Shown here piece by piece: positions 2,087 through 25,669 of a DNA stretch of 64,000 nucleotides. Position 1 is the first letter of the stretch, and each line of letters opens with the position of its first letter. The stretch covers positions 1-64,000 of the IMG/VR virus record IMGVR_UViG_3300023184_000076; one strand, given 5' to 3'. The stretch comes from a virus. Taxonomy: Duplodnaviria > Heunggongvirae > Uroviricota > Caudoviricetes. Below the pieces are notes generated by a model. The model was not told where the DNA came from and made no database searches. It worked only from the letters and a program-made list of their open reading frames with translations. Both the position numbers and the translations under genes were made by a program.

Positions 2087-2821
2087 TTAATTTTCCATTG
2101 TGGGCTTCAACCACATTAATTTGTTTTCAAAAATATATCTCTTTAACGTTGGGTAGTCATTTAACATATCTAACGTACCCATTGTATCGTGTTTGAAACA
2201 TTTAAACAACTCTTCTCGAATTCTTTCAGATGACACAACTCCCATCTTATTTTCATAATCGTAGTTGTTGACGTAGTAATCTAAAAATTTTAAACTGAAC
2301 CCTTTTGTTATTGCAAATCTTACCGCTCTTAAAACACGAAGCGGATCATCATTAAATGTTTGTTCAGGTGGTAGTGGAGTTATAAGAACCATTCGTTTTA
2401 AATCATTCATTCCATCAAATAAATCAATGATCTTACCATCTTCACCTTTAGCCATGGCGTTAACGGTAAAGTCTCTACGTTCTAAATCGTCTTTAAGGGT
2501 TCCTGGTACAACGATAGGAGTTCTTGTTCCTTCCACATACCCAACCTCTTTGCGAGCCATTACAAAGTCTGCAACCCCTTGATATTTGTGATCCTTTGGG
2601 AACTTAGCTCTTATAGTAAAACAATCAGGTGTTGATAGGAATATCTCAAATTTCTCATTTAAAAGAAATGTTTCCAACACCACATACATCTCGTGAGCAC
2701 TCTTGTACTTTTCCAATAATGTATCACTTGGGACCGCAACATAGTCAACGTCTTTAGATTGGAGTCCTAAGATCTCGTCTCTAATTTTTCCCCCTACCTC
2801 ATAAAATTTAAATAAACTCAT
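2087..2821 (-). CDS. tRNA nucleotidyltransferase (CCA-adding)/poly(A) polymerase family; start moved to internal Met MSLFKFYEVGG
   Basis: Head-domain motif YEVGGKIRDEILGLQSKDVDY matches GGxVRDxLLGx4DxD of the class II nucleotidyltransferase family. Confidence 0.65.
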   Translation of the reverse strand: MSLFKFYEVGGKIRDEILGLQSKDVDYVAVPSDTLLEKYKSAHEMYVVLETFLLNEKFEIFLSTPDCFTIRAKFPKDHKYQGVADFVMARKEVGYVEGTRTPIVVPGTLKDDLERRDFTVNAMAKGEDGKIIDLFDGMNDLKRMVLITPLPPEQTFNDDPLRVLRAVRFAITKGFSLKFLDYYVNNYDYENKMGVVSSERIREELFKCFKHDTMGTLDMLNDYPTLKRYIFENKLMWLKPTMEN

Positions 2822-2822
2822 A

Positions 2823-3140
2823 TTAATATCCTTCTCCCGTTTCGTTAATAAAATCAACCCCTTTTTCTTTTGCGAACTCAGACACCAGTCTCTCAACTAA
2901 ATCTTTATCCATTCTTCCATAATCAACAGAATAACCATAAACTCTAATTCCAAGATCAGACCAACGAACTCTTCCCCCACCACGGATTCTCCAACCCTTC
3001 AGTTCAGGTTCTTCGTTTCTAAAATGATTTGCAACGTCTTCATGAAACTCACCGTAACCTGAACGAAATACAACTTCACCCTCATTTTCAAGGATGACAC
3101 ATTTACGAACCATATCTTTTTCAATGATAACTTTTTCCAT
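2823..3140 (-). CDS. hypothetical protein (105 aa)
   Basis: ORF abutting the CCA enzyme gene; contains GWRIRGGGRVRW / YGYSVDYG motifs of unknown family. Confidence 0.5.
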   Translation of the reverse strand: MEKVIIEKDMVRKCVILENEGEVVFRSGYGEFHEDVANHFRNEEPELKGWRIRGGGRVRWSDLGIRVYGYSVDYGRMDKDLVERLVSEFAKEKGVDFINETGEGY

Positions 3141-4126: not shown

Positions 4127-4340
4127 TTTTTTCTTCTTTTTTTAATTTATCAAATAATTTATTTACCATTAGTCTTACCATAAAAACAGTGTACATCAAG
4201 ACTATAACTGATCCACCTGCCTGTAGAATTAAATCCACCTCTCTGTTAATCACATATTCAAAAAATACATTCATAACCAATAGGTAGATAATTGTGAGGA
4301 TTACAACTCCCCAGATACCTAACTTTTCTACTTTAAACAT
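4119..4340 (-). CDS. small 2-TM membrane protein, overlaps the SPFH gene; possible NfeD-like partner
   Basis: 73 aa, two hydrophobic helices, start/stop overlap with 3221..4126. Confidence 0.5.
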   Translation of the reverse strand: MFKVEKLGIWGVVILTIIYLLVMNVFFEYVINREVDLILQAGGSVIVLMYTVFMVRLMVNKLFDKLKKEEKND

Positions 4341-4437
4341 CTACTTCATTTTTATTTTATTACGTAATTTAAAATATACAAAATCATTGTGACACTTCCA
4401 AGTAATACAACCATTAATGCCTCTAAATCATTTTTTC

Positions 4438-4701
4438 TCATTTTACAATTGCGGAAGTTAGAGTGTTAATCAAACCTTGGACTTTACCGAAACTATCAAA
4501 TCGAACTAATGGATCTGTATTGAAAAACTCAACATACCATTCTCCGTTTTTAATTTCCTCATTTGTTGGTGTGATGAACGTTAACCCATCAACAATATCC
4601 AACACGTAGTAATAAGAGTCGTCCTCTTCGTGTTCTCTTATTTCTTCACTTTTAAATCCTAAAAGGATTAGTTCTCTTTCTGTCATATTATTTTGTTTCA
4701 A
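4438..4701 (-). CDS. hypothetical protein (87 aa)
   Basis: ORF in array. Confidence 0.5.
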   Translation of the reverse strand: MKQNNMTERELILLGFKSEEIREHEEDDSYYYVLDIVDGLTFITPTNEEIKNGEWYVEFFNTDPLVRFDSFGKVQGLINTLTSAIVK

Positions 4702-5428: not shown

Positions 5429-5459
5429 ATCTTATTTTTATCAAAGATATGTATTTTTT

Positions 5460-6410: not shown

Positions 6411-6732
6411 GATCTGTTCTCATTTCACCCTTTTCACCACAGGTTTCACAAATCTCATAACTTTGATTTCCAGCTAAATGTATTCTTTTAAAAATTTCAT
6501 CAGATCCGGTATTGATGTAAAATCTTAAACCACCAAACTTTTCTTTAACCTGACATATCTGTTTGTCCCACCCAAGTTTTATTAGATCCTCAATAAGATC
6601 TTTAATTATCGGGTACCAACCACTATCAACATCAAACACCTCACAGTGTTTAATACTTGGTCTATCTGAGTAAAACCCATTCTCAAGTCCACCTATGGAC
6701 TCAAGGAAATCATTCATTTCTTCTTTAGTCAT
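6346..6732 (-). CDS. hypothetical protein with C-terminal CxxC...C..H motif
   Basis: ORF; CETCGEKGE...LCNKHYEE. Confidence 0.45.
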   Translation of the reverse strand: MTKEEMNDFLESIGGLENGFYSDRPSIKHCEVFDVDSGWYPIIKDLIEDLIKLGWDKQICQVKEKFGGLRFYINTGSDEIFKRIHLAGNQSYEICETCGEKGEMRTDLGWYSTLCNKHYEERKSNIQR

Positions 6733-7303
6733 CTTTTAAAAACTTTAATATTTTTTCTTTGATGCCAGATTGTTTAATACCTTCAGCACCTTTTGGTGTT
6801 AATACAAAATTATCTAATCCCCAATCTTTCCAACCCTCACCGTTTTTACCCATATCAAGGTCATCTACCGCAACCCAATGTGTAATCTCAGGATGGTCAT
6901 GTAAGTATTGTTTAATCTCAATAACACGAGTCATCTCTAAGTCCCATTGTGGTGACCATACCCAAACCATATCATTATACCAAGTACATTGACCTAAGTT
7001 TGGTGTTAAGGCAATTGGTTTTTTTGAGATTCCTTGTGATTCATAGTACTCACCCATCTCCTCAAGGTTTGCCCATCGTTTCCAATCAGATGAGGTAACA
7101 ATCTCAGCTCCCGTTTCTTCAATAATTTTATTGAGAATCTTAATTGCCTTCTGGTTGAAGTTATCAAATCGATACTCCAAAGGGAAATCTCCCATAGACA
7201 TGGATAATTTAATCCCGTCCCATTTCATTTGTTTCTTACGTCGTCCTCCCCACTCTGAAGATAAACAAATAACTCCATCGTGATCTAAAAATATTACTTT
7301 CAT
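6725..7303 (-). CDS. HAD-superfamily hydrolase-like (possible nucleotidase/phosphatase)
   Basis: N-terminal FLDHDGV motif (HAD motif I DxDGV). Confidence 0.4.
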   Translation of the reverse strand: MKVIFLDHDGVICLSSEWGGRRKKQMKWDGIKLSMSMGDFPLEYRFDNFNQKAIKILNKIIEETGAEIVTSSDWKRWANLEEMGEYYESQGISKKPIALTPNLGQCTWYNDMVWVWSPQWDLEMTRVIEIKQYLHDHPEITHWVAVDDLDMGKNGEGWKDWGLDNFVLTPKGAEGIKQSGIKEKILKFLKDD

Positions 7304-7753: not shown

Positions 7754-9154
7754 TTATTTATTCCTGTTGTAATCATCACACAATTTCCAAATTTCTTTTT
7801 TTGTAATTGATGTTTTACCTGTTTTACTTTTTAACACATTTTCCGTGTTTTTATCAAATTTACCATTTTTAGTAGTTTTTAAACAAGCTTGTAATGCAAA
7901 TATCTCATCGTCTTCATCATCTTTACACCCAAGACTGTAAGTACCATTACAACTTTTATATACCGTTTTATCTTCCTCACCTGCACCTCCAACTTTCGCA
8001 ACATTTTTACATTTTGCATCTTTTGGGTTTTTTTCACAATATACTCTTAATTTTTCCGCACATTCTTCAGGATTTTTTTCACAATAATCTTCAGCTTCAG
8101 ATTGTGCGTAGTTTTTAGTCATGTCAACTAATGATGTCGCAATTGGTTCCCACCCATAATCAAAGTCACCATCAAGGGCTTCTAATAATGATTCGTCAAA
8201 TGACTTTTCATACACATCACTCACTTTACAAAAATCGGCAGGACTTTTTAATGACTTAAATACCTTATAAATTGCATCTTCATCTGTTCCTAAACCTTCC
8301 ATAGCATGAAATAATTTACCAGAAAGTGCTCTTGCTTGATCATCGGTTAAAAATCTTTTCCATTTTTTTCTATCGGGACTTGTTTTACACATATCAAATA
8401 ATCTTGTGATCATTCCCATGTCATCATCTTTTGTCATACCCCACACACCTAATGCGGTGATACCTATTACCCCTAATGCTACCCAACCAACAGGACCTAA
8501 ACCTAAAAAAGTTGCTGCCGCTGCCGTTTCTCCACCTACCGCCGCAGCCGCTCCCGCACCCGCAACTTCAGCACCTACAACTTCCGCACCTGTTGCCGCA
8601 GCGACCTCAGCTCCCGCCAATTCAGCTCCCGCAACTTCAGCTCCCGCAACTTCAGCTCCCGCAACTTCAGCTCCCGCAACTTCAGCTCCCGCAACTTCAG
8701 CACCTGTGGATTCAATCCCCGCAAGTTCCGAACTTGAAGCAACATTTTTTCCACCACCAACAACTGACTTAGTGGTTTGTAACTCACCAGCGGTATTTGC
8801 AGTTTTTTCAATATTTTTAGTAGATGTAAGATCTTTAACCATATCAGCTTCTTTTTCAGGTCTGTTAATCCATTCAGATCCTTTAGGTACTTTACCTTTA
8901 TCAACTGCAGAGTCAAAAATATCCCCATCAGGTGTTTTATACCTTCTTGGTTTATTATCGGAAGTACCAAAATCATCATAGTCGTCGGTTAATCCTTTTA
9001 AATAATCCCTACCTTTTAATACGTCAGCATAACCATCTTGTTCTTTTAATTTCTTACGAGTTTTTGTGTTTTCATTTAAGGTTTTAGAACGATCATACCC
9101 CATAAGGTTTTTAATCCTATTCAATTCCTCAAGTATAATTTTATTATCTTTCAT
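7754..9154 (-). CDS. membrane-anchored protein with (AGAEV)n repeat, TM helix and a C-terminal annexin-type repeat
   Basis: KLFHAMEGLGTDEDAIYKVFKSL ... VYEKSFDESLLEALDGDFD matches the annexin repeat consensus (K-G-x-G-T-D-E ... Y..L...L.GDFE). TM segment FLGLGPVGWVALGVIGITALGVWGM. Start moved to MKDNKIIL. Confidence 0.55.
   Translation of the reverse strand: MKDNKIILEELNRIKNLMGYDRSKTLNENTKTRKKLKEQDGYADVLKGRDYLKGLTDDYDDFGTSDNKPRRYKTPDGDIFDSAVDKGKVPKGSEWINRPEKEADMVKDLTSTKNIEKTANTAGELQTTKSVVGGGKNVASSSELAGIESTGAEVAGAEVAGAEVAGAEVAGAEVAGAELAGAEVAAATGAEVVGAEVAGAGAAAAVGGETAAAATFLGLGPVGWVALGVIGITALGVWGMTKDDDMGMITRLFDMCKTSPDRKKWKRFLTDDQARALSGKLFHAMEGLGTDEDAIYKVFKSLKSPADFCKVSDVYEKSFDESLLEALDGDFDYGWEPIATSLVDMTKNYAQSEAEDYCEKNPEECAEKLRVYCEKNPKDAKCKNVAKVGGAGEEDKTVYKSCNGTYSLGCKDDEDDEIFALQACLKTTKNGKFDKNTENVLKSKTGKTSITKKEIWKLCDDYNRNK
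8566..8700. repeat. tandem 18-nt repeat (cagctcccgcaacttcag x5, with degenerate flanking copies) encoding the (AGAEV)n tract
   Basis: Visible directly in sequence; GC-rich. Confidence 0.7.
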
Positions 9155-9182
9155 AAAACTTTTTATTATAAATACTTGGTAA

Positions 9183-9219
9183 AACAAAAAACCCCCACCA
9201 TTTCTGATGAGGGTTTTAT
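9183..9219. terminator. hairpin AAAACCCCCACCA-tttc-TGATGAGGGTTTT
   Basis: 11/13 bp stem with A/U-rich flanks. Confidence 0.4.
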
Positions 9220-9392: not shown

Positions 9393-9830
9393 TTAAATTT
9401 GGGTTATCGCATTATGAGTATCTAACTCATCTTGGATTACCTCAATCTCGTTTTCCAACCCTTTAACAATACCATCTCTATCAACAATTGAGATTTCTGA
9501 TGTCATTGTAGGAGTATTCTCAGACCGTCTTGAGTATTTATCAGTCGAAGTACCTTCTGTACAATCCATAAATTTGATTTTCGACACAATCGACTTCAAC
9601 TCAGACATTCTGAATATCTTACCATACACGGGTGAGTTTGCTTGGTGAATCTTTGTTTTTAATTCAACCAACTCATTGGTTAAGGATATCATCTTGTCCA
9701 AAGACTCTGTCGGTGAGTATGGTCTATCATTACCTACCTCAACACTATTGTACACGAGTACTTTTTGTGTCTCTTCGGTAATTTCTTTTACCAATTTATT
9801 CTTTAATTTTAACGCTTGTTTAATATTCAT
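9393..9830 (-). CDS. hypothetical protein (145 aa)
   Basis: ORF. Confidence 0.5.
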   Translation of the reverse strand: MNIKQALKLKNKLVKEITEETQKVLVYNSVEVGNDRPYSPTESLDKMISLTNELVELKTKIHQANSPVYGKIFRMSELKSIVSKIKFMDCTEGTSTDKYSRRSENTPTMTSEISIVDRDGIVKGLENEIEVIQDELDTHNAITQI

Positions 9831-9894
9831 AATAATTTTCTTTTCGTATTAAAGTATAAGTGATCTTTTTAGTTATGTCAAGTTTATTTTACTA

Positions 9895-10866
9895 TTATGG
9901 TAAATCATCACCAAGTGGGTTAGTAGGTCTCAACATACGAATTCTTTGTCTCATATCTTCTATAATATCATCATGAAGACCCGTATGTACCCTTATCTCT
10001 TCATTTGGTACAGATTCCTCCACAATCATTTCCTCCGTCATCATTTCCTCCATTGGTACTGGAATCGGTTCATCGTGTCGATACATTACCATTCTTTTCA
10101 ATTCACTTTCATCAAATAACTTGTAGTTAAAATTTTTATCTTTAACGTCAGATTTCATTCCACTAAACAACTTATGTAATAATTCTAACGGAAGTCCTGT
10201 CTCCATTGAATCCACTCTGTCATCTTTTTGATCGTATATTTGAATTTGATGATTGTTATGGTAAAACCCAAATTTCACATTATTTATTTTATCAATCACA
10301 TACACAAGTACACCATCTCTTGAGTGATTGTAAAAGTAACTTTGCTCATGAACTGAGGCGGTACACCATTTTGTTTGATACCCATAAGAAACAGACGCTT
10401 CATACGTTAAGGGTTTAATACAAAAATATTGGTCATCCTCGTAAACTACTTTTACTTGTTTTTTTGCCTTTTTAATTAGATCACGATTTTTTGCTTGGTA
10501 TACTTCAGTTGCAACCATTTCCCAACTATCGTATTTACTAACATCTTTTTCATTAGTTAACCCTCTTTCCATATAATCACAAAACTCAACAAATAAATTC
10601 ATCTCATCCCAACCATATAAATGACCAATCAATCTCTTTGTCATCCAACTATCAAAAGTATTATCACCTAAAACCTCATCAAGTTTTCTTTCCCTTGACG
10701 ATGATTCTTTAACCATATATTTAATATCGTTGTCAAAACTTTGTTTAAGTATCTTGACCAAAAATTGAGTATACTTTTTAGTTTCACTAGTATCTAGTTT
10801 TCCCATCAAATCGATTAAACTAACGTTAATCAAATCGTTTTCTTTTTTAATTTTCTTTATTCCCAT
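9895..10866 (-). CDS. hypothetical protein (323 aa)
   Basis: ORF. Confidence 0.55.
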   Translation of the reverse strand: MGIKKIKKENDLINVSLIDLMGKLDTSETKKYTQFLVKILKQSFDNDIKYMVKESSSRERKLDEVLGDNTFDSWMTKRLIGHLYGWDEMNLFVEFCDYMERGLTNEKDVSKYDSWEMVATEVYQAKNRDLIKKAKKQVKVVYEDDQYFCIKPLTYEASVSYGYQTKWCTASVHEQSYFYNHSRDGVLVYVIDKINNVKFGFYHNNHQIQIYDQKDDRVDSMETGLPLELLHKLFSGMKSDVKDKNFNYKLFDESELKRMVMYRHDEPIPVPMEEMMTEEMIVEESVPNEEIRVHTGLHDDIIEDMRQRIRMLRPTNPLGDDLP

Positions 10867-11348: not shown

Positions 11349-11377
11349 AAAAAAGTGACCCCATCAAGTTAATGGGA
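11349..11377 (-). terminator. hairpin GTGACCCCatcaagttaatGGGAGTCAC plus U-run
   Basis: Overlaps stop of RNA ligase gene. Confidence 0.5.
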
Positions 11378-12502
11378 GTCACCCACGTTATTTTTTTCAC
11401 CATAGATCAAGTAGTCAGGGTTGATTACTTTAGAAACCTTTCTACGGTCACCAGTTACGGATTTCACAACTATACCTTCGTGAGGAACTTTAGTACCTTC
11501 TATGAAGTTACCGAAGACGTATTTGTCTTGTTCTTCTTTATCCCAATTACCTTGGTATAACAACTCAACCTGTGGTAACTCTAAACAATCAAAGTGTACA
11601 GTTTCATTTATGTATGGTTGGTATTCTCCATCAACTTCAACATCAAATCCTACAAACTTAACATCAGTCAAACCGTACTCGTAGTTTTTTTGTATACCCG
11701 CACCATATATCTCTCCGTATATAACAACACCATCAGTTAAGTTAAATGGTTCGTAAGTATCTTTTACGTGAGCCCACAACTTACCTCTTATATCGTAGTT
11801 GTTCGCCACAGTTTTCCACACATCAGTATCGTAGAAACCTTGAGAGTCAGATCCTTTTTCAACGTTGTGAGAACCATAGACATATTCAAACGCCGCCCAT
11901 TGATTACCAAATAGTACTTTAACACGATCCCACAAAGAAAGTTTTTTCTTTCTAACTATTCCGTAACGAGCGTTAGTTCCGTGAAGTTTACGAGTTATAA
12001 CAACTTCATCTTCCTCATTGAACATATCAGGTACATTCTTTTGGTTAGGGAATTTGTAGTAAACTTTGAAGTTAGGGTTTTGGTGGTATTTTATTTTACG
12101 TCCACCAACACTCAACTGAACGGTCTTAACTGGTGGTTCGTATTTGGTAACTCCCAATATAGTCATCATGTCATCACCATCATTAACATTGTTCTCCAAT
12201 GATTTTGGTGCCAAATATTTGAATGGTATTAACAAACACTCAGAGTAAACTCCACGAAGTTTTACAGTACGAACTCTTTGACCTTTACGAAGGTAGTTAG
12301 TAACTTCCATCAAGTCAGATAATGCCTGAGGTATTACCGCATCTGTGGTCGCAACAACAACCTTATCTCCAGATTGGTATTCACCTTTTTTAGTTATGGC
12401 GTTCCATCCACCAACTAACACTTGTTCTATGTTATCCGCCCCTTCTATTGGTTTAACCTCTCCGATTACACCAACGTAACATACACTATTTTGATTTTCC
12501 AT
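11369..12502 (-). CDS. ATP-dependent RNA ligase, Rnl2-like nucleotidyltransferase
   Basis: Motif I KLHGTN (KxHGxN lysine-adenylate site as in T4 Rnl2 KIHGTN), motif IV EGIVVK, motif V K..KVINPDY. Confidence 0.65.
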   Translation of the reverse strand: MENQNSVCYVGVIGEVKPIEGADNIEQVLVGGWNAITKKGEYQSGDKVVVATTDAVIPQALSDLMEVTNYLRKGQRVRTVKLRGVYSECLLIPFKYLAPKSLENNVNDGDDMMTILGVTKYEPPVKTVQLSVGGRKIKYHQNPNFKVYYKFPNQKNVPDMFNEEDEVVITRKLHGTNARYGIVRKKKLSLWDRVKVLFGNQWAAFEYVYGSHNVEKGSDSQGFYDTDVWKTVANNYDIRGKLWAHVKDTYEPFNLTDGVVIYGEIYGAGIQKNYEYGLTDVKFVGFDVEVDGEYQPYINETVHFDCLELPQVELLYQGNWDKEEQDKYVFGNFIEGTKVPHEGIVVKSVTGDRRKVSKVINPDYLIYGEKNNVGDSH

Positions 12503-12636
12503 TTTGTTTTATTTTTAAATTTGGTGTTAATAATAAAGCCCATAAACAATTTGCGTTTTTGGTAAAGTAAATTGAGATACCTATTAATCCAAAGAAACCT
12601 ATATAAATTAATCCAATTCCTAAATATTTCATACCA

Positions 12637-12644
12637 CAAATATA
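12637..12644 (-). promoter_or_regulatory. TATATTTG motif
   Basis: Upstream of small TM ORF/RNA ligase region. Confidence 0.3.
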
Positions 12645-12655
12645 CTCATTATTTT

Positions 12656-13021
12656 TTAATCAATATCATACAATCCGTCTTTTTGAGAATCGTTCATCAT
12701 TTTTACTAAAAGAGCTTCTCTACTATACTTTCGTATTAGTTTGAAGATCTCCCCTATATCTGTAAAATTAGATGGTGGACTATCGTTTCTCACAGGAAGA
12801 AATATGATCGTAAACCCATGATTTCCCTCAAACCTTTCTTTTACTCTGATACCACATATTTCATCAATATAAACCCAAGGGTAGTTCCCAGTAAGTTTAA
12901 CCTCAATCCCAATTTTTTTCAATCTTTCAACAAACCTTGTGATCTTATCACCTGTTAGTTTTGTACTACTTTCTGTTTCCATTTCTATATAAGTTCCAAA
13001 TTTAGTTTCTCTTGTTTTCAT
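12656..13021 (-). CDS. hypothetical protein (121 aa)
   Basis: ORF. Confidence 0.45.
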   Translation of the reverse strand: MKTRETKFGTYIEMETESSTKLTGDKITRFVERLKKIGIEVKLTGNYPWVYIDEICGIRVKERFEGNHGFTIIFLPVRNDSPPSNFTDIGEIFKLIRKYSREALLVKMMNDSQKDGLYDID

Positions 13022-13239
13022 CTTAATACGTATGAATGAATTACTACTATCAATTTACCATTTATGGTTGCACGATCTGATTTAATTTCAATATCCATCA
13101 TACCCAAGTCTTCCTTAAGTCTGTTGGCTTGAACTTCGACTTCGTGTTCCGCATCTTTTTCATCTTTAAAGAATCCGAAGTAGGAATCACATTTTCCTGT
13201 CTTATCACACACTCCGTAAATTATCTCTCTTTGATCCAT
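13018..13239 (-). CDS. hypothetical protein (73 aa)
   Basis: ORF, overlapping neighbours. Confidence 0.4.
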   Translation of the reverse strand: MDQREIIYGVCDKTGKCDSYFGFFKDEKDAEHEVEVQANRLKEDLGMMDIEIKSDRATINGKLIVVIHSYVLR

Positions 13240-13396
13240 AACATTCTAATTTTTTATCTTTAACATTCCACAAATCTTTTTTTCCTTCGGTCATATGACA
13301 ATTGTGTTTCTTACCGGTTCTCTCAGCAAAATCAACAATAGTATCGTTGTTACGATTACGTATAAAGTGAGGACATTCTTTACAAGGTTTTGTCAT
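13205..13396 (-). CDS. small zinc-ribbon protein (CKECPH...C..H...CYG)
   Basis: Cys/His spacing. Confidence 0.4.
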   Translation of the reverse strand: MTKPCKECPHFIRNRNNDTIVDFAERTGKKHNCHMTEGKKDLWNVKDKKLECYGSKRDNLRSV

Positions 13397-13626
13397 ATTT
13401 TATCTAAGATTGAATCAATATACTCTTTTACGTCTCTTAACAATTCTGAGTCGTATTTAACCCCAAAAATCTCAACCTGATAAGAATGCCATTTTGTAAA
13501 CATCTTATCGTCTTTTTGAAATGTGCGTGAGTCTCCACGTCTGAAGGAGTCTTTAACTTTTGATCCTTCAAACTTCCATATTGTTACCCCACGATATACC
13601 CTTTTAGTTTCTTTAGTTGTCCACAT
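13393..13626 (-). CDS. hypothetical protein (77 aa)
   Basis: ORF. Confidence 0.4.
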   Translation of the reverse strand: MWTTKETKRVYRGVTIWKFEGSKVKDSFRRGDSRTFQKDDKMFTKWHSYQVEIFGVKYDSELLRDVKEYIDSILDKI

Positions 13627-13663
13627 AGAAACAAAGGTAATAAATTAATTTGGATTTAACAAA

Positions 13664-14893
13664 CTATTTTTTGAATTTAAATTCGGTTTCTATTTTTCTT
13701 CTACCGTATTTTTTTTCCATCAGTTTCTGATGTAGTTCCCAATTGAGTATGGATTCATTCATTGGTTGATCGTCTTCTGCCATTGCGTAAAGTTTACCTA
13801 GTCTTTTAATAATTTTGTTTGCATCATAGGATAATTGTTCACATCTATCCTTAAAGAACATAATAGGATTTTTTTCATACTTAGTCAAATAGTTGATGAA
13901 TTTTTGTCTTACTTTATTTAGATTTTCTTCATCTTCATCGACCCCTAACATTCCCCCACCGAATGTTTGATTAAATAAAGATTTAATTGCATCAAAAGGT
14001 GTTGATGTCATCTTATCAAAATATTCAATCGTGTTATTTACCAAGTTTAGATAAAGTAAGTGTAAAACGATTTCAATCTTTCTATTTTCGGACATATTTT
14101 CATCGTATTGGCCAAGATGATCAAGTAACGCATCAACCCTATCCATTTGTTCTTTTAAACCATCAACTAACTTTTCAAAACTATAATCCCTAATATCCAT
14201 AATTTCTTTAAATGCCTTATCTTCTTTAAGGAAATTTAAGAATTGGGATTTTGTGATTTTCATTTGTCTCATTCTTGATGAAAGTTCAGTTGGTCTAACC
14301 AAACTTTCAGCCGCTTGCATAAAATAATTATACCTCATAAACTTTTGGTCAATCTCAGGTATTCCAAACCTTAAATTCCCTTTAGAATAGGTTTGATATT
14401 CAGCATCACGACCCATTAAATCAGTTTGTTTTTTTTGTTTATCGTATTTATGTTTTAATTCATGAGCTAAAGTGGATTCAGTTTCAACACGATCTCGTAT
14501 AAATCTTTCATATAAATCTTCAGTTTCCCATTCATCACCAACAATAAACGTAATATGTAATTCTATTTCTTTATCTAATATTTGAACCTTTAGTTGGACC
14601 TTTTTATTGTATGTAAAGTTTTGTCCCATACCCATGCCGGCAATTTCGGGTTTACCCTCATACTCAGGAATGTGTTCAACCATAACATGAAGATCAAGTG
14701 AGTTAATATGATAATCGGCAATAGTTAAATCAACACTACGATTAAAAACATACTCCTCTCTTTTATCGTAAATTCCTTTTATAAAATACATAACTATTTC
14801 ATATAAATCGGATGCGGCATCTAAAATACCTTCAGGAACTCCTAACGCTTCGTTAAGTATCTTATACTGGTTTTCTGTTAATATAATCTTCAT
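13664..14893 (-). CDS. hypothetical protein with HExxH motif (TLAHELKHKYD), possible zinc metallopeptidase
   Basis: HELKH motif only; no other peptidase landmarks verified. Confidence 0.5.
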   Translation of the reverse strand: MKIILTENQYKILNEALGVPEGILDAASDLYEIVMYFIKGIYDKREEYVFNRSVDLTIADYHINSLDLHVMVEHIPEYEGKPEIAGMGMGQNFTYNKKVQLKVQILDKEIELHITFIVGDEWETEDLYERFIRDRVETESTLAHELKHKYDKQKKQTDLMGRDAEYQTYSKGNLRFGIPEIDQKFMRYNYFMQAAESLVRPTELSSRMRQMKITKSQFLNFLKEDKAFKEIMDIRDYSFEKLVDGLKEQMDRVDALLDHLGQYDENMSENRKIEIVLHLLYLNLVNNTIEYFDKMTSTPFDAIKSLFNQTFGGGMLGVDEDEENLNKVRQKFINYLTKYEKNPIMFFKDRCEQLSYDANKIIKRLGKLYAMAEDDQPMNESILNWELHQKLMEKKYGRRKIETEFKFKK

Positions 14894-14919: not shown

Positions 14920-15573
14920 TTAACCCACAACCCCAACAATATCATCTAAGTGGTGATCATCATTTATTTCAGACATCACTATTCTTTTATCCATCATATG
15001 TACAATCTCAGTTATACTATATGGTTGAAGGTTGTTTCCATCAACTCCAACGTCCAATCTTTTTCCTTTGCCCCATTTTCTACCTGAAGGTAAGTGTACG
15101 TGACCATGAAGGTGAACAACACCTTTACTAAGTCCATTCCAACTTGCAAATGGGTAGTGAGTCATCACAAAGTTCTGACCATCAATATTAACCTGTAAGT
15201 AATCACTAACAGATAAAAACATATCTTTGATGTTATCTCTGTTGTTTTTAATGTGGTGATCGTGGTTTCCAAGAACCAAGTGAATATTTTTACATACCAA
15301 TCGGTCCAAGAAAATTCTAATAAACTCAAATCCACCAAATGCAATATCACCTAACATAATCAAAGTATCGTTCTGACCAACCTTTGAGTTAATGTTGTCA
15401 ACCAATGCGTTATTCATTAGTTCTAATGTTGGGAAATCTCTCGTATTATGATCCGGTACTTTTCCATCAGATGTTCTCCAATCAGTCACACCTCTACAAA
15501 TGTTTTTATGGTTGTAGTGTGGATCCGATGTAACCCACACTCTACCTGTTGTCAATATTTTATCAAATTTCAT
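14920..15573 (-). CDS. calcineurin-like metallophosphoesterase
   Basis: GDIAFGG ... GNHDHH ... GHVH motifs of binuclear metallophosphatases. Confidence 0.6.
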   Translation of the reverse strand: MKFDKILTTGRVWVTSDPHYNHKNICRGVTDWRTSDGKVPDHNTRDFPTLELMNNALVDNINSKVGQNDTLIMLGDIAFGGFEFIRIFLDRLVCKNIHLVLGNHDHHIKNNRDNIKDMFLSVSDYLQVNIDGQNFVMTHYPFASWNGLSKGVVHLHGHVHLPSGRKWGKGKRLDVGVDGNNLQPYSITEIVHMMDKRIVMSEINDDHHLDDIVGVVG

Positions 15574-15577
15574 TTTC

Positions 15578-15979
15578 TTATAATTTAATTTCGAACCTAT
15601 CTTTCATTATCTGAATTTTATCTTCAGGAACACCATGTTGATTAACCCCACCATGTCTGTTTTCAACAATAACGGTGAATACTTTATAATCAAACGTGTC
15701 AGCCATTTTAAAATACGGTTCCATTTCCCACTCTTGAGTAAACGTATTCGAAACGACAATTACATTATTAATATTAGCGGTATGGTTTAATATCATTGCA
15801 GTATGAACACGATCCTGACACCATTTATGAGCATCCTTCAATTTGGTAAAATCAAATTTATATTCACCATTATCCATAAAGAACATATCGGTCTCAAAAT
15901 GAGTACCACCTAATGACTTAGCAAGTGAGGACTTACCTGAACCAGGTACCCCTCTAACAATATAAAGTATTTTTTCCAT
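15578..15979 (-). CDS. P-loop nucleotide/polynucleotide kinase-like protein; start moved to MEKILYIV
   Basis: Walker A GVPGSGKSSLAK 10 aa from the N-terminus, as in T4 Pnk kinase domain. TATATTTG motif and terminator hairpin lie inside the longer track ORF. Confidence 0.55.
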   Translation of the reverse strand: MEKILYIVRGVPGSGKSSLAKSLGGTHFETDMFFMDNGEYKFDFTKLKDAHKWCQDRVHTAMILNHTANINNVIVVSNTFTQEWEMEPYFKMADTFDYKVFTVIVENRHGGVNQHGVPEDKIQIMKDRFEIKL

Positions 15980-15983
15980 ATTG

Positions 15984-15991
15984 CAAATATA
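15984..15991 (-). promoter_or_regulatory. TATATTTG motif upstream of kinase gene (ATG 15979)
   Basis: Sits between terminator hairpin 16015-16030 and the ATG. Confidence 0.4.
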
Positions 15992-16014
15992 CAAAAAAAA
16001 ACGGCATAAAAAAA

Positions 16015-16030
16015 GGGAGATCACTCTCCC
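16015..16030 (-). terminator. hairpin GGGAGAtcacTCTCCC
   Basis: Downstream of 16051..18237. Confidence 0.5.
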
Positions 16031-16050
16031 TCATTAAATTTATTTTTTTA

Positions 16051-18237
16051 TTAGAATAATTTATCCGTTACAGGTACAGGTTGTGTATTAACCACAGGTT
16101 CCTCTTTTGGTACAGGAGTTCCACCTGTAAGTGCCAACATAACTTCATTACGTATTTCTTGATTCCATTTACAATTAACCGTCATACTTAATCCTTTGGT
16201 ATTATTTAAATATTGTTTAATTTGTCTTAATGTATTACAAGTTTCTTGATTACGTAATTTTCTTTTTCTTTGAGCTTCCGTATCTACAGTAGTACTTACA
16301 CCATTACCATTTCCTGTTGGGAGTCTTTTTCCGGTACCTCTTTCTGTTTCACCACCTTCAGTTTCATTATCACTACCCATACTAGGAGTTTCTTTCGTCT
16401 CACCCTCAGCATTACGACCAAATAAAACTTTAGCGGTTACACCACCAACATGATCAATTTTATAATCGTCAGCCTTTAATGTGGTATTTCCTACCCCTAA
16501 ATCTAAAACAACTGTTTGACGATCATCACTTACACTTTTAATTTTATAATATTGTTTATCAAATATTCCACCCTCATTACCACCTTTTCTAGCTTTTATA
16601 TAAATCCAATCTCCCACACCATAATTAGTTTTATCCCCCGAATAAACTTTTCTTGAATCCTTACCTTTTAATTTTTTAATCTGATCAAAAGTTACCTGAT
16701 CAACAACCCCATCAGTTCTTAATGGTGGACTAACCGTATCTTTATATTTTTCTTGAAATGCTTTTACCGCAATTTCAGTATCAGTACCAAATCCCCCATC
16801 ATCTTTTAAATTTAACTTTTGTTGTACTAATTTAACATCATCACCTTTAGATTTTTTTGCAATAGATAATTCAAAAGCCGGTGGTGTTATTGCCATTATT
16901 GCATTATAAGTGGCATCATCAACAACACCATCAGTTCTTAATGGTGGAGTAAGTTTAGCCCCTTCAGTTTTTTGGAAATTAATTACCTTCTCTAATACCT
17001 GTGGACCAAAAGTAGGATTTTTTTCCGCAGGTAATTCTAATTTACTCATTATATTACCTACTTCCACACCTCTCTGTGGTTTGGATTTATCATACTTTAA
17101 TTCAATCTCAGTTAATAAATTATATCTAAAACCTTTATGTCTATAACTTTCCTGTACAAATGGATTTTCAAGGTCAGGGTCTGTTGTTAACGCAATAAAG
17201 TTATCACTTACTATAACATCATTATATTTCCAAGTATCGGTTTTAGATAATGCATATTGAAAATTAACATCAGTTGCGGGATCAATTGGAAATGGGGTGT
17301 TGGTTGTATCATCGTTTCTTACTTTAATAGCTTGAATGGTTTGATTGTCATTTCTTACTATATAACCATATGAAAATTTATTAATAGTAGGATCATCAGT
17401 CACTAACATATGAACAATACCGTTACCTATTGTGGTTTTTATTTGTCTTTGTTCCCCTAAAGCTGGATGACTAGTTAACCATGTTTCTGTTTGTCCTGCC
17501 CCACCAATTTTTGCAGTAGTTGCTGCATCATCCGCAGCCTTTTTTGCCTCATCATCTTTCTTCTTTTGTGCGGCATCCAAAGTTGCTTTATATTTTTCCT
17601 CAAGTTGTTTTTTCCATGTCTCATAAAACTCATCACTCACCGCAATTGAATTTTCAAATAAACCATCAGTTATTGCATAATCTTCAGCTCTATCTCCTTC
17701 ATCATCATTTTCAATACCATAATCACCACCACCCCAACTATCACTAGTCCCAGGTATACCTAAACCATAATCACCACCACCATATGTTTTAAATTTTTTA
17801 TTTGCCACACAAAAAGTAGGAAAATCAGCTAAATCTTTAAGTTTTGAGGTAATAGTTGCATGACTCATCGCATAGTCTGTTAATTGTGCAAAAAGTGGTG
17901 TAGTGACATTAGTTAGAGCAGTTCCACTTTTCGTTGGTTTACCCATAGCGTTTGCCATATAAGTTTGTGAGCACCACCTATTAATCAGGTCTTTTCCTGA
18001 TAAATTCTTTGCATCCTCTTTTGCCTGATCTAAGAATTCAAAACAAATTCCACCTTCGGGGCATTTTTCGTATGTCATATTATTCACGGAAGTTCCTTTG
18101 GGAACAGTACCGTGTTTAACACTAGTTTTTATACTATATGGTTCAACTTCTTGTAAGTCCTCATTTAACAAACCATAACTTTCATTTAGACTTTGTCTAA
18201 CAATATTTTTTATAAAACTATTTGTAATTTTTTTCAT
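16051..18237 (-). CDS. large protein with two peptidoglycan-binding (PG_binding_1-like) repeats; putative virion-associated cell-wall binding/lytic protein
   Basis: PPLRTDGVVDDATYNAIMAI and PPLRTDGVVDQVTFDQIKKL repeats. Confidence 0.5.
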   Translation of the reverse strand: MKKITNSFIKNIVRQSLNESYGLLNEDLQEVEPYSIKTSVKHGTVPKGTSVNNMTYEKCPEGGICFEFLDQAKEDAKNLSGKDLINRWCSQTYMANAMGKPTKSGTALTNVTTPLFAQLTDYAMSHATITSKLKDLADFPTFCVANKKFKTYGGGDYGLGIPGTSDSWGGGDYGIENDDEGDRAEDYAITDGLFENSIAVSDEFYETWKKQLEEKYKATLDAAQKKKDDEAKKAADDAATTAKIGGAGQTETWLTSHPALGEQRQIKTTIGNGIVHMLVTDDPTINKFSYGYIVRNDNQTIQAIKVRNDDTTNTPFPIDPATDVNFQYALSKTDTWKYNDVIVSDNFIALTTDPDLENPFVQESYRHKGFRYNLLTEIELKYDKSKPQRGVEVGNIMSKLELPAEKNPTFGPQVLEKVINFQKTEGAKLTPPLRTDGVVDDATYNAIMAITPPAFELSIAKKSKGDDVKLVQQKLNLKDDGGFGTDTEIAVKAFQEKYKDTVSPPLRTDGVVDQVTFDQIKKLKGKDSRKVYSGDKTNYGVGDWIYIKARKGGNEGGIFDKQYYKIKSVSDDRQTVVLDLGVGNTTLKADDYKIDHVGGVTAKVLFGRNAEGETKETPSMGSDNETEGGETERGTGKRLPTGNGNGVSTTVDTEAQRKRKLRNQETCNTLRQIKQYLNNTKGLSMTVNCKWNQEIRNEVMLALTGGTPVPKEEPVVNTQPVPVTDKLF

Positions 18238-18873: not shown

Positions 18874-18890
18874 ATAACAAAGATACTAAA

Positions 18891-19602: not shown

Positions 19603-20013
19603 TTAAGATAATATTTTTGTTAAAATTTTAAATAATTCATCATTTTTATCCACAGGTAAGTCATCTATTGTAAAAAAACCACAATCTGAATGTTCATGAC
19701 CATCTTGAGCTTTATTTAAATTTGGCATCTTTTTTACGTCAGATTCGTATAAATAAACATAAATCAAACCTTTTTGTTCACCTTCTTCATCTTTCTTAGT
19801 GATAAATCCAACTAAACTTATTTCATCTTCTATTTTAATATTTGTCTCTTCGTAAAATTCACGATAAGCACAATCTCTTGGTGTTTCATTTGCTTCCAAA
19901 TGCCCTGTTGGGATAAACCATTTGCCTGCATAAGTTTCGTGATCCGCTCGTTTACATAACAAGACTTTATCTCCATATTTTAATATTATGCCCGAACTTC
20001 TATCTGATTTCAT
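19603..20013 (-). CDS. Nudix hydrolase
   Basis: Nudix box GHLEANETPRDCAYREFYEETNI (Gx5Ex7REUxEExGU). Confidence 0.75.
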   Translation of the reverse strand: MKSDRSSGIILKYGDKVLLCKRADHETYAGKWFIPTGHLEANETPRDCAYREFYEETNIKIEDEISLVGFITKKDEEGEQKGLIYVYLYESDVKKMPNLNKAQDGHEHSDCGFFTIDDLPVDKNDELFKILTKILS

Positions 20014-22995: not shown

Positions 22996-23021
22996 AACTC
23001 CCACTGATTATAGTGGGAGTT
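22996..23021. terminator. perfect 10-bp hairpin AACTCCCACTgattatAGTGGGAGTT, bidirectional
   Basis: Between convergent SLT and MTase genes. Confidence 0.6.
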
Positions 23022-23856
23022 CTTTTATTTGTTCTAATGCCTTGAAGTAATTAATTCTTGTCTCGGCTATTTGTTTGTAATTTTCACTTAACTCAATCCC
23101 TAACCATCTACGTTCCAATATCTGTGCTGCAACTAATGTTGTTCCTGAACCAGCAAATGGGTCCAATATTACATCGTTTTTGTAGGATAGTATCTTAATC
23201 GCTTTGGTGGGTATGTCCATTGAGAAAGTCGCCTTGGTGAGTGATTTAGTATCTGCAAAGTAATTCCACTGACCAAACACAAGTTCCATAAACTCTTTCT
23301 TATCCGTCTCCTCATATACAATTTTTTTCTTTAATGACCCATCTTCCTGTTCAATTTCAGTTGGTGTCCCTTTCCACTGAGGTTCTCCTTTAACCTTTTT
23401 AATGTGGTGTTTTTTGTATGCCAATATCACACACTCCTTTGGATTATATATATACGGACTTGATGGGCTCATCCAAGATCCCCACGCAGTAGTTTTACTT
23501 CTATGTGGCGACTGTTCTTCAAGATCAACGATACCAAAGAACCCAAATCCAATTTCTTTCATTATCTGATACATCTCAGAAACGAAGAAGATTCGACCAC
23601 CTTTTTTCTGACGATTGATTTCATACGGAATATTCAAGGCAATTCTTCCATCATCTTTTAGTACGTTGTAAGCCTCGGTTAACCAATTTTTTGCAAATAC
23701 CAAATACTCATCAAATTCAACATCGTCGTCGTGTACATCATAAGCAATACCAACACCATATGGTGGTGATGTACAAATTAAGTCCACAGATCCCTCAGGT
23801 AATGTTTTCATTACCTCAATACAATCCCCATTTATTATTTTTCCTGTTTCTATCAT
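23008..23856 (-). CDS. DNA N6-adenine/N4-cytosine methyltransferase (beta class, orphan)
   Basis: Motif IV DLICTSPPY near N-terminus, motif I LDPFAGSGTT near C-terminus. Confidence 0.8.
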   Translation of the reverse strand: MIETGKIINGDCIEVMKTLPEGSVDLICTSPPYGVGIAYDVHDDDVEFDEYLVFAKNWLTEAYNVLKDDGRIALNIPYEINRQKKGGRIFFVSEMYQIMKEIGFGFFGIVDLEEQSPHRSKTTAWGSWMSPSSPYIYNPKECVILAYKKHHIKKVKGEPQWKGTPTEIEQEDGSLKKKIVYEETDKKEFMELVFGQWNYFADTKSLTKATFSMDIPTKAIKILSYKNDVILDPFAGSGTTLVAAQILERRWLGIELSENYKQIAETRINYFKALEQIKELPL

Positions 23857-24278: not shown

Positions 24279-24551
24279 TTATTTATTTTTTAATGTTTCT
24301 ATGTGATGTTCTAAATACCATAACGCTTTTTTAAGGTCCTGTAATTCTTTATCCGAATCTTTCTTACCCGCCCTTGATATATACTTTACCGTATTTCCTA
24401 ATGAGAATCCTAATTCCCAAGCATCAATTACTTTGATTGCCTCATAAGGGTTATCTTCTCCTCCGTAATGTTGGGGGTGATTAACTTGTTCTATTTTTGG
24501 TGGGGGGCACATACAAAGTACGTTAGCTCCACATACACATTCTTTTTCCAT
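24279..24551 (-). CDS. DUF3310-family phage protein
   Basis: PQHYGGEDNPYEAIKVIDAW ... GNTVKYISRAGKK ... DLKKALWYLE. Confidence 0.65.
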   Translation of the reverse strand: MEKECVCGANVLCMCPPPKIEQVNHPQHYGGEDNPYEAIKVIDAWELGFSLGNTVKYISRAGKKDSDKELQDLKKALWYLEHHIETLKNK

Positions 24552-25669
24552 TAGTCTTCTCTATATTCTTTTAATAATTCATCATTTGAAATGGTCCCAT
24601 ATTTCTCATTAAGACCTTCCATATCAACATCCTTATTCATCATTATTTTAACATCGTAGATTTGATCGGTAGTTATTAAAGATATGTCAATTTCTTTAAT
24701 AATTTTGTATGGGTCAGCATTTGATCCAGGTCTTCTATCCTCAACATAACCTTTCCAATTTTTTGCGGTATCTCTTGGAATTCGAATTGATGCCCCACGA
24801 TCTGAAACCCCCCAACTAAATTTATCAATTGATTGTGTTTCAAATTTACCAGTTAAACGGAGATTGTTATCTGACCCGTAAGCTTTTATATGTGCTTCAT
24901 GTCTTACCTCAAACGCATTAAACAATGATATAAAATATTTTTCGTTACCATCATTTCTCATTTTATCTGTTGAGAAGTTCGTATGAAGTCCAGACCCGTT
25001 CCATTCCCCTTTTTGAATTGGTTTTGGATGTAGAATAATCCTATAATTATATTTTTCAGAAATTTTAAACAAAAAGTACCTAGTCATCCACAAATCATCA
25101 CCCGCTTTTAATTTACCTTTTGTAAACACTTGGTATTCCCATTGACCTAACGCAACCTCAGCGTTAATCCCTGTAATGTCAATTCCATATTTTAAACACA
25201 TATCCATATGTTCTTCAACAAAATCTCTTCCGGCAACATATTCTCCAACACCACAATAATATTTACCTTGTGGTTCCAAGTTATTTTCGTCGTGACCTAA
25301 AATACATTTGTTTTTTCTATCGTAGATAAAATATTCTTGTTCAAACCCAAACCACAAATCTTCTTGATCTCCAATTAGTTCTGATCTTGTATTAGTTTCG
25401 TGTGGAGTACCATCAGAATTCATTACTTCACACAACACGTAAATTGTATTTGTATGATCAGAAAAATAATGTCTAACAGGTTTTAAAATACAATCAGAAC
25501 TATTACCTTCCGCTTGTAATGTTGATGACCCATCAAAGTTCCATTCAGGAAAATTATTTAGAACTAAACAGTTTTTAATTTGTTCATAGTCCATAATTTT
25601 AACTTTACTTCTTAAATTTGGTTCAGGCGTATACCCATCAATCCACACATATTCTAACTTAACTTTCAT
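24551..25669 (-). CDS. glnA: glutamine synthetase, type II-like (372 aa)
   Basis: N-terminal signature FDGSSTLQAEGNSSDCIL and ATP-site signature KPIQKGEWNGSGLHTNFS both match the GS PROSITE patterns; EYVWIDG N-terminus. Confidence 0.85.
   Translation of the reverse strand: MKVKLEYVWIDGYTPEPNLRSKVKIMDYEQIKNCLVLNNFPEWNFDGSSTLQAEGNSSDCILKPVRHYFSDHTNTIYVLCEVMNSDGTPHETNTRSELIGDQEDLWFGFEQEYFIYDRKNKCILGHDENNLEPQGKYYCGVGEYVAGRDFVEEHMDMCLKYGIDITGINAEVALGQWEYQVFTKGKLKAGDDLWMTRYFLFKISEKYNYRIILHPKPIQKGEWNGSGLHTNFSTDKMRNDGNEKYFISLFNAFEVRHEAHIKAYGSDNNLRLTGKFETQSIDKFSWGVSDRGASIRIPRDTAKNWKGYVEDRRPGSNADPYKIIKEIDISLITTDQIYDVKIMMNKDVDMEGLNEKYGTISNDELLKEYRED

Follow-up and report, generated by a model that had tools for sequence, protein, structure and literature searches.

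Do a small P-loop kinase and a binuclear metallophosphoesterase (MPP), encoded by adjacent phage genes, form the end-healing half of an RNA repair pathway? The question is raised by a locus in the IMG/VR virus record IMGVR_UViG_3300023184_000076 (Caudoviricetes), of which positions 1 to 64,000, hereafter called the window, were analysed. An earlier note on this DNA had described the two genes as a split Pnkp-like pair of RNA end-healing enzymes. Both open reading frames (ORFs) are present as it had described them, next to each other on the minus strand, the first with a Walker A motif close to its N-terminus and the second with all five MPP motifs. Fold and profile comparisons, together with a conserved gene linkage, make it probable that the pair heals RNA ends that would then be sealed by a nearby RNA ligase, and this part of the earlier proposal is retained as the best reading.

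Linkage of the kinase and MPP genes in phages

Loci encoding a homologue of the window kinase were collected from IMG/VR by a pattern scan with kinase alignment. This gave 80 loci, which formed 56 clusters after dereplication at 95% kinase identity, and their six-frame ORFs were searched, the seeds being taken from both the window and related loci. An MPP of the same type as that of the window (aq_1665 type, see below) was encoded within 10 kb of the kinase in 41 of the 56 clusters, and within 1.5 kb in 36 of them. By chance, a single-copy gene in a genome of about 150 kb would lie within 1.5 kb of the kinase only about 2% of the time, so that the adjacency of the two genes is far beyond random expectation. 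The MPP gene precedes the kinase gene in 15 clusters and follows it in 26. An RNA ligase gene was found within 10 kb of the kinase in at least 30 of the 56 clusters (a lower bound, many loci being truncated), the ligase being Rnl5-like in 15 clusters and Rnl1-like in 17. Gene order and ligase family therefore vary while the linkage stays, which argues for a functional coupling rather than for mere shared ancestry. A cREC_REC gene was present near the kinase in 17 of the 56 clusters, and no fusion of kinase and MPP was seen among the 80 viral loci. Beside domain identities, active-site motifs and operon anatomy, all directly visible, it is this genomic context, conserved across many phage lineages, that provides the strongest evidence for RNA repair.

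Homologues of HAD_SAK_2, a candidate phosphatase that is also encoded in the window, occur close to the kinase in many of the related loci. Four kinase-positive loci that lack the MPP (L058, L059, L061 and L089) have one 2–3 kb away. This suggests that the 3'-end-healing modules are interchangeable.

The same arrangement was found in cultured phages. In rV5, an Rnl1 gene is divergent to the kinase gene, which is followed by the MPP gene, beside six tRNA genes (L002, 8791–9703). Aeromonas phage phiA009 has a contiguous block of MPP, Rnl1 and kinase genes, and the kinase and MPP genes are direct neighbours in Campylobacter phage A135 and in Vibrio phage Pontus. Among the records of cultured phages, kinase homologues were present in 617 and MPP homologues in 1140, and the tallies of kinase and MPP per host were nearly identical for Pseudomonas aeruginosa (50/50), V. 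harveyi (36/36), C. jejuni (21/21) and P. syringae pv. actinidiae (18/18). In five metagenomic loci (L036, L043, L060, L077 and L080), the module adjoins arrays of 9–20 tRNA genes. Including these, tRNA arrays of 4–20 genes were observed directly beside the module, as also in rV5, and beside the MPP gene in Flavobacterium phage immuto (L001, 8358–9437). The latter phage gave the only match in a search at the DNA level (178 nt, 69% identity). In immuto, the MPP gene lies next to the tRNA genes, and a kinase was neither annotated in the 16-kb region nor found by a kinase search of the locus.

Two further observations were made on the neighbourhood. In four freshwater phage contigs (L004–L007), two different MPP genes (3824–4492 and 9422–10111) surround the kinase and an Rnl5-type ligase. 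One is the aq_1665-type orthologue, 49% identical to the window MPP; the other is unrelated and lies beside a glycosyltransferase gene. Hence not every MPP near a kinase belongs to the module. In addition, a NUDIX hydrolase gene (19603–20013, minus strand, E 1.9e-21) is syntenic in most related loci, 3–4 kb upstream of the kinase.

A different substrate has to be considered at this point, as the kinase and MPP could clean 5'-OH and 3'-phosphate ends of DNA for repair, recombination or replication. T4 Pnk and mammalian PNKP can process DNA ends in vitro; kinases of the Pnk fold often accept DNA, and mammalian PNKP is among the fold matches of the window kinase. In phiA009, a DNA ligase gene is also found downstream of the kinase gene, at a distance of about 250 bp, and in rV5 one is about 3.5 kb away from it. 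Over the whole collection, however, an ATP-dependent DNA ligase was encoded within 10 kb of the kinase in only one of the 80 loci (the class of DNA ligase that the search covered), to be compared with the RNA ligases of 30 clusters, and the recurrent neighbours (cREC, HAD_SAK_2, the CCA-adding enzyme and tRNA arrays) are all RNA-related. We consider DNA end processing to be quite improbable.

Assignment of the two proteins

The kinase starts at an ATG (MEKILY...). A longer ORF, starting at a GTG and extending to position 16024, is possible, yet all homologues begin at MEK. The Walker A motif (G10-V-P-G-S-G-K16-S17), about ten residues from the N-terminus, is invariant in the family, where G10xxGxGK16S is accompanied by the invariant elements E29-x-D31, S77-N-T-F-T81, E106-N-R108-H109 and H115. 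The protein matched Pfam AAA_33 (E 9.9e-9, 36.1 bits for a cutoff of 27), PHROG 2071 ‘ATPase’ (E 1.8e-36) and, more weakly, PHROG 505 ‘polynucleotide kinase’ (E 1.2e-4). Labels of the family in cultured phages are just as inconsistent, its members being called ‘ATPase’, ‘AAA’ or ‘polynucleotide kinase’. The 133 residues correspond to a kinase domain only, and a C-terminal HAD phosphatase domain with its DxDxT motif is absent from the polypeptide.

Searches of the PDB with the single sequences gave no match, either for the kinase or for the MPP. With a profile of the kinase family, matches were obtained to the kinase of CthPnkp (E 2.5e-3), PSTK, T4 Pnk (E 0.05–0.07) and Pnkp1. Alignment by hhalign to the kinase domain of T4 Pnk, for which the sequence used was confirmed to be 100% identical to that of T4, had a probability of 93% (E 3.4e-7) and placed the invariant D31 opposite the catalytic D35 of T4, which activates the 5'-OH, and SNT opposite SDT. 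The invariant R108 of the ENRH motif falls in the region aligned to R122–R126 of T4, where the register is uncertain (the lid Arg of T4 is R126). For the T4 gp1 dNMP kinase, the hhalign probability was 3%, with an alignment restricted to the P-loop. An AlphaFold (AF2) model of the kinase (pLDDT 84.5, pTM 0.80) was compared to the PDB with Foldseek, and its best match was T4 Pnk (2ia5, E 4e-5, TM 0.69), followed by the CthPnkp kinase (4jt2/4gp7) and mammalian PNKP. Gluconate kinase, the PFKFB kinase domain and PSTK were interleaved with these, and UMP-CMP kinase came at rank 46. As polynucleotide kinases come first by fold and profile, and T4 gp1 reaches such a low probability, sequence and model comparisons assign the protein to the polynucleotide-kinase-like enzymes, and its identification as a dNMP kinase was rejected.

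In PADLOC, the model CARF4--CARF_PDDEXK_AAA was matched by the kinase over its N-terminal 112 positions (E 9.2e-14), so that a domain of this kinase type also occurs joined to CARF and PD-(D/E)xK domains, in candidate ancillary proteins of type III CRISPR systems.

In the MPP, the five motifs are D17-x-H19, G75-D76, G102-N-H-D105, H139 and G157-H158-x-H160, and an extra His after motif I (SDxHxxH) is present as H22, which is nearly invariant. The protein matched Pfam Metallophos (PF00149, E 1.4e-7, 32.6 bits for a cutoff of 21.5) and PHROG 547 (E 2.7e-45). Its best PDB profile match was 1xm7, the Aquifex protein aq_1665 (E 7.8e-11, residues 12–196, near full length), and the second was MPPED2. 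Lambda phosphatase, the PPP enzymes and the phosphatase domain of CthPnkp were not among its PDB profile matches.

The MPP might nevertheless be a lambda-type Ser/Thr protein phosphatase, acting on phosphoproteins of the host or phage and unrelated to the adjoining kinase. The two do share the MPP superfamily, and hhalign aligned the window protein to lambda NinI with a probability of 80% (E 1.4e-5), a similarity at the superfamily level only. In this alignment, H104 is opposite His76 of lambda, whereas Gly80, in the motif G75-D-I-A-F-G80, is opposite Arg53, so that the Arg of the GDxxDRG signature is replaced by Gly. Given also the PDB profile matches, and a tight linkage to the kinase and to RNA ligases that resists rearrangement, a protein phosphatase of this type was rejected as exceedingly improbable, and the sequence comparisons place the MPP in the aq_1665 clade rather than in that of lambda phosphatase and CthPnkp. 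The combination that the earlier note had named as speaking against an end-healing pair, a lambda-type phosphatase next to a dNMP kinase, is thus not what was found.

Work on CthPnkp gives some indication of which reaction the MPP may favour. Arg237 of that enzyme is needed for its Mn-dependent monoesterase activity and not for the diesterase activity (Keppetipola and Shuman, PMC2190708), MPPs without this Arg (MJ0936, Mre11 and Rv0805) are diesterases, and the equivalent of CthPnkp His264 matters for 2',3'-cyclic phosphodiesterase activity (PMC2190708). Because the monoesterase Arg is missing and the cyclic-phosphodiesterase His is kept, we suggest with low confidence that the window MPP could be mainly a cyclic phosphodiesterase. 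Another conserved Arg, such as R45 in the sequence TRDF, might replace the missing one.

The pair could also act in nucleotide or signal metabolism, as an NMP/dNMP or small-molecule kinase accompanied by a nucleotidase, or by a cyclic-(oligo)nucleotide phosphodiesterase destroying immune signals of the host. The MPPs of the aq_1665 type are uncharacterised, Rv0805 and other MPPs hydrolyse cyclic nucleotides (PMC2190708), gluconate kinase and UMP-CMP kinase are among the lower fold matches of the kinase, and the syntenic NUDIX gene is only 3–4 kb away. Such a role is very improbable in view of the hhalign result with the T4 dNMP kinase and of the first ranks held by polynucleotide kinases in the fold and profile comparisons, and it would leave the persistent linkage to two families of RNA ligases unexplained.

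The locus and its other candidate repair genes

Every gene around the kinase–MPP pair is on the minus strand. In the order in which they are transcribed, a gene for a 728-aa protein is followed by the kinase, MPP and HExxH genes, by ORFs of 77, 63, 73 and 121 aa, and by the RNA ligase gene (Table 1). The stop codon of the kinase gene is separated by 4 nt from the start of the MPP gene, which is itself 26 nt from the HExxH gene, and the stretch from kinase to ligase is bracketed by two terminator-like hairpins. The same genes, with identical lengths, were called independently on two public contigs from metagenomes, both encoding an identical HExxH protein and one being a 149-kb ENA contig. The three smallest ORFs, which had no Pfam match, were among the genes called on these contigs.

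Table 1. Position of the genes and signals of the locus, and of two other candidate repair genes of the window.
Feature	Position	Strand	Evidence
P-loop polynucleotide-kinase-like protein, 133 aa, stand-alone, predicted 5'-OH kinase	15578..15979	-	Pfam, PHROG, hhalign, Foldseek
Binuclear MPP, 217 aa, aq_1665 clade, predicted 2',3'-cyclic phosphodiesterase / 3'-phosphoesterase	14920..15573	-	Pfam, PHROG, PDB profile
HExxH protein, 409 aa, invariant HExxH...E motif, directly downstream of MPP	13664..14893	-	
Three small ORFs (77, 63, 73 aa) between HExxH gene and orf121	13018..13626	-	ORF list
orf121, 121 aa, PHROG 38683 (unknown function)	12656..13021	-	E 3e-21
ATP-dependent RNA ligase, 377 aa, Rnl5 (DraRnl/NgrRnl) architecture	11369..12502	-	Pfam, TIGR02306, PDB
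Terminator-like hairpin with T-run, end of upstream 728-aa gene, upstream module boundary	16013..16032	-	
TATATTTG, Bacteroidota-type -7 box TAnnTTTG, 4 nt 5' of kinase ATG (putative promoter)	15984..15991	-	
Terminator-like hairpin over ligase stop codon, downstream module boundary	11359..11377	-	
HAD_SAK_2 protein, 192 aa, candidate 2'/3'-phosphomonoesterase	6725..7303	-	Pfam PF18143 E 4.4e-22
Short class-II tRNA nucleotidyltransferase, CCA-adding type, head domain	2087..2896	-	Pfam PolyA_pol E 4.7e-17

The ligase has an N-terminal OB domain (PF21189, PHA02142-type, residues 13–93, E 3.6e-14) followed by a nucleotidyltransferase domain (PF09414, residues 165–360), with no C-terminal domain, which is the layout of Rnl5. 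It matched Pfam RNA_ligase (E 4.2e-15), and its best PDB match was Naegleria NgrRnl (5cot, E 3.6e-17). The match to TIGR02306 (RNA_lig_DRB0094, E 3.6e-36) reached 124.7 bits, below the equivalog cutoff of 151.15, so that the protein is a relative rather than a curated equivalog. The earlier note had seen an Rnl2-like ligase in this ORF. Rnl2 was rejected, since TIGR02307 gave only 23.2 bits for a cutoff of 197, over a stretch of 38 residues, and the domain matches assign the enzyme to the Rnl5 (DraRnl/NgrRnl) type.

Inspection of related loci revealed that orf121 co-occurs with cREC and the ligase. In these relatives, a cREC_REC gene (PF20274, ‘cyclic-phosphate processing receiver domain’) sits directly downstream of orf121, between it and the ligase gene (12304–12720 in L019; 11380–11787 in L008, where the match was confirmed with E 7.6e-22). 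At E 1e-5, the window yielded no cREC gene; only a gap is present at this place, both in the window (153 bp, 12503–12655) and in its closest relatives. The gene appears to have been lost in this lineage.

Outside the operon, the product of ORF 6725–7303 belongs to PF18143 (‘HAD domain in Swiss Army Knife RNA repair proteins’) and, judged by this match, is a second candidate 3'/2'-phosphatase, so that the MPP need not be the sole 3' end-healing enzyme. The CCA-type enzyme (2087–2821, or to 2896 as the longest ORF) matched the NCBIfam models of CCA tRNA nucleotidyltransferases (E 5.7e-27, below their cutoffs) and PHROG 24229 (E 2.9e-58). The components of the healing, sealing and CCA-rebuilding toolkit listed in the earlier note are all present, and the HAD_SAK_2 protein, which it had missed, is to be added to them. 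No RNA methyltransferase, and thus no Hen1-like 2'-O-methyltransferase partner, was found among the approximately 45 window ORFs scanned with Pfam; the only methyltransferases seen were two acting on DNA.

The HExxH protein had no match in Pfam, PHROG, NCBIfam or PADLOC. A profile of its family retrieved 643 relatives, nearly all of 350–450 aa, from 1.84 billion representatives. Although members are only 24–47% identical, E15, G18, P20, H144, E145, H148, Y166, Y190, E196 and F218 are invariant, and R200 and E203 nearly so. The AlphaFold model is confident (pLDDT 84); in it, a helical domain comes after an antiparallel sheet at the N-terminus, and the HExxH motif (144–148) is inside a predicted helix (135–154). 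No fold match was detected, neither to a zincin nor to any other family, and weak matches to Peptidase_M91 (E 5e-4) were seen in only two of 34 family members.

A homologue of this protein was encoded near the kinase in 19 of the 56 clusters. Conversely, in 67 of the 74 viral HExxH loci with enough upstream sequence, the MPP and kinase genes precede the HExxH gene, and the MPP gene is immediately upstream of it in 60. The suggestion of the earlier note that the protein may be part of the same unit is supported, as the gene is in the same conserved block, except that the gene had been placed upstream of the pair, while it is downstream of the MPP gene in the direction of transcription. The HExxH protein is probably co-transcribed with the module as a part of the repair pathway, and probably a metal-dependent hydrolase working with it. 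A stronger proposal, that it is a new metal-dependent enzyme performing an integral step of phage RNA repair, is tentative and on balance doubtful. If true, damaged tRNA might be freed by it of a non-canonical blocking group, or of a peptidyl or aminoacyl moiety; alternatively, it might disable a host nuclease by proteolysis. Kinase, MPP, HExxH, orf121, (cREC) and Rnl5 would then constitute a multi-component repair operon, and the lesion that it repairs would be another than the T4/PrrC break of the classic case.

The 728-aa protein (16051–18237, minus strand), whose gene is immediately upstream of the module with a strong terminator between the two, contains a PG_binding_1 domain and low-complexity segments rich in Gly and Asp. 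It may be virion-associated or lysis-related.

The box TATATTTG would be a promoter giving a leaderless kinase mRNA. Such TAnnTTTG boxes were found at most 40 nt upstream of 5 out of 31 genes, for about one expected. The five boxes are all on the minus strand in the first 20 kb (15984–15991, 13632–13639, 18878–18885, 5442–5449 and 1667–1674), 4–27 nt 5' of gene starts, and three of them are only 4–5 nt before the ATG. Over the whole window, the enrichment of TAnnTTTG was marginal (122, for 102 ± 10 expected). A scan for sigma-70-type promoters did no better than in shuffled sequence (20 found, 26.7 expected). The placement of the boxes suggests leaderless mRNAs and a Bacteroidota host. Two observations fit such a host: a Flavobacterium phage is the nearest cultured relative, and a Por_Secre_tail domain is encoded on a related contig.

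Elsewhere in the window, auxiliary genes were observed at 24551–25669, 36240–37148, 3221–4126, 7754–9187, 23008–23856, 35128–35967, 30990–31655 and 32072–32827. The set comprises a glutamine-synthetase-like protein, a full DnaJ (J, CXXCXGXG and C-terminal domains), an SPFH/Band_7 protein, a protein with a weak annexin repeat, the two DNA methyltransferases (N6_N4 and D12 classes), a GIY-YIG endonuclease and a DUF932 protein.

A putative RNA repair pathway and its relation to known systems

Consider the reactions predicted for the module, including the enzymatic activities themselves, the division of labour between MPP and HAD proteins, and the RNA substrate. A metal-independent ribonuclease would cut RNA, most plausibly tRNA, leaving a 2',3'-cyclic phosphate on one end and a 5'-OH on the other. 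The kinase would move a phosphate from an NTP onto the 5'-OH end, and the aq_1665-type MPP would open or remove the 2',3'-cyclic or 3'-phosphate. Any leftover monoester could be cleared by the HAD_SAK_2 protein, or by cREC in the relatives. The Rnl5-type ligase would then join the resulting 3'-OH and 5'-PO4 ends, and the CCA-adding enzyme would rebuild trimmed 3' ends of tRNA.

Several points weigh against such a pathway. The kinase resembles Pnk only remotely (about 20% identity, at the TM of 0.69 given above), gluconate kinase and the PFKFB kinase domain score nearly as high as the Pnk enzymes in Foldseek, and the position of Arg38 of T4 Pnk, the Arg for the substrate phosphate, is occupied by an aromatic residue (F34). 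Seven of the 56 kinase clusters have neither MPP nor RNA ligase within 10 kb (HAD_SAK_2 was checked in four, and some are truncated). The window contains no tRNA genes. The synteny of the HExxH gene comes mostly from related phages and may reflect shared ancestry, so that it is not independent evidence. No demonstrated activity was found in the literature for the kinase family, the aq_1665 MPP clade or the rV5 module. Finally, the characterised Rnl5 ligases, DraRnl and NgrRnl, prefer nicks in duplex RNA to breaks of the anticodon loop. The break to be repaired may then lie in a stem, and not in the anticodon loop of a tRNA.

What the repair would be for is a separate matter. The earlier note had proposed a counter-measure to anticodon nucleases or PARIS, a putative role drawn by analogy with T4; the sequence identifies neither the RNA target nor a host nuclease. 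Healing and sealing might instead be housekeeping in the phage's own programme, serving for instance to mature or re-join RNAs of phage or host that a nuclease of the phage has cleaved, or to control RNA turnover. The chemistry would be the same, so that all the domain and linkage evidence applies equally to both purposes; the very wide distribution of the module in cultured phages could reflect a core function, and the preference of Rnl5 ligases for duplex nicks would fit as well. On the other hand, the only phage Pnk/Rnl system with known biology, that of T4 against PrrC, is a counter-defence (PMC7824862). The module is moreover patchy among related phages, with parts swapped (Rnl1 for Rnl5, MPP for HAD), as is typical of accessory conflict genes. 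A housekeeping role thus seems to us unlikely.

Phage RNA-repair sets have been predicted before, with PNK, HAD or occasionally calcineurin-like or HD phosphoesterases, cRec, SAK-HAD, Rnl ligases and CCA enzymes (Iyer and colleagues, PMC7824862), and the GenBank records of rV5-like and other phages label such genes ‘polynucleotide kinase’, ‘phosphoesterase’ and ‘RNA ligase’. The window module belongs to this known, computationally predicted type. Among its closest counterparts is the rV5-type module (Rnl1 gp078, ‘ATPase’ gp077 and phosphoesterase gp076), which recurs in Pakpunavirus (PAK_P-like), Phapecoctavirus, Vibrio, Aeromonas and Campylobacter phages. Shared features are the kinase family (about 45% identity), the aq_1665-type MPP (about 31% identity), the adjacency of the two genes, a neighbouring RNA ligase gene and, often, tRNA genes. 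In contrast to the window, the rV5-type module has an Rnl1-type ligase and neither HExxH protein nor orf121, and its function is given by annotation only.

With the T4 system of Pnk (PseT) and Rnl1 directed against PrrC, the window module shares the kinase fold, the arrangement of catalytic Asp and Walker A, and the logic of healing before sealing. It differs by a stand-alone kinase with an MPP neighbour, a separate HAD_SAK_2 and an Rnl5 ligase, whereas T4 Pnk is fused to a HAD (DxDxT) 3'-phosphatase and works with Rnl1. In bacterial Pnkp (Clostridium thermocellum Pnkp-Hen1; Capnocytophaga Pnkp1-Rnl-Hen1), a P-loop 5'-kinase is likewise combined with a binuclear MPP for healing of 2',3'-cyclic or 3'-phosphate ends (PMC2190708), and the CthPnkp kinase was the second-best fold match of the window kinase. 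These enzymes are single polypeptides, however, with a lambda-phosphatase-type MPP that has the GDxxDR Arg, a C-terminal adenylyltransferase domain and a Hen1 partner. The window has separate genes, an MPP of another clade that lacks this Arg, no such adenylyltransferase domain, and a kinase remote from that of CthPnkp. Membership in the Pnkp family was rejected on these grounds, and ‘split Pnkp’ describes an analogy and not a homology.

Two other systems are relevant. In the HD-Pnk and ligase clusters (Runella slithyformis HD-Pnk/LIG; Deinococcus DRB0094–DRB0098), an end-healing kinase–phosphoesterase is encoded beside an ATP-dependent RNA ligase related to DraRnl (PMC6097658), but there an HD domain, in one polypeptide with the kinase, serves as the phosphoesterase in place of a separate MPP. 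Among solved structures, Aquifex aeolicus aq_1665 comes nearest to the window MPP and has the same SDxHxxH...GD...GNHD...GHxH pattern; it is a structural-genomics protein of unknown function from a bacterial genome, and no link to RNA repair is documented for it in the searchable literature.

Since comparative genomics had already predicted such sets, the finding will not surprise specialists. The kinase–MPP pair is in itself of low novelty; the new part is the HExxH protein in the module, of moderate novelty. The interest of the locus lies in a wider context. Host defences that cut RNA are increasingly recognised (PrrC, RloC, PARIS, Cas13), and RNA repair by phages is a textbook counter-measure, shown so far only for T4. 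The window offers a clean example of a far more widespread alternative kit, with a function so far predicted, which consists of a stand-alone kinase, an aq_1665-type MPP, interchangeable Rnl1 or Rnl5 ligases, and optional cREC and HAD_SAK modules. A structural-genomics orphan, the family of PDB 1xm7, gains a functional hypothesis from the linkage statistics. These apply as well to the kinase family, which is encoded by hundreds of cultured phages; rV5 and the PAK_P-like phages, which are tractable, are among them. The statistics also mark the HExxH family as a candidate new component of RNA repair.

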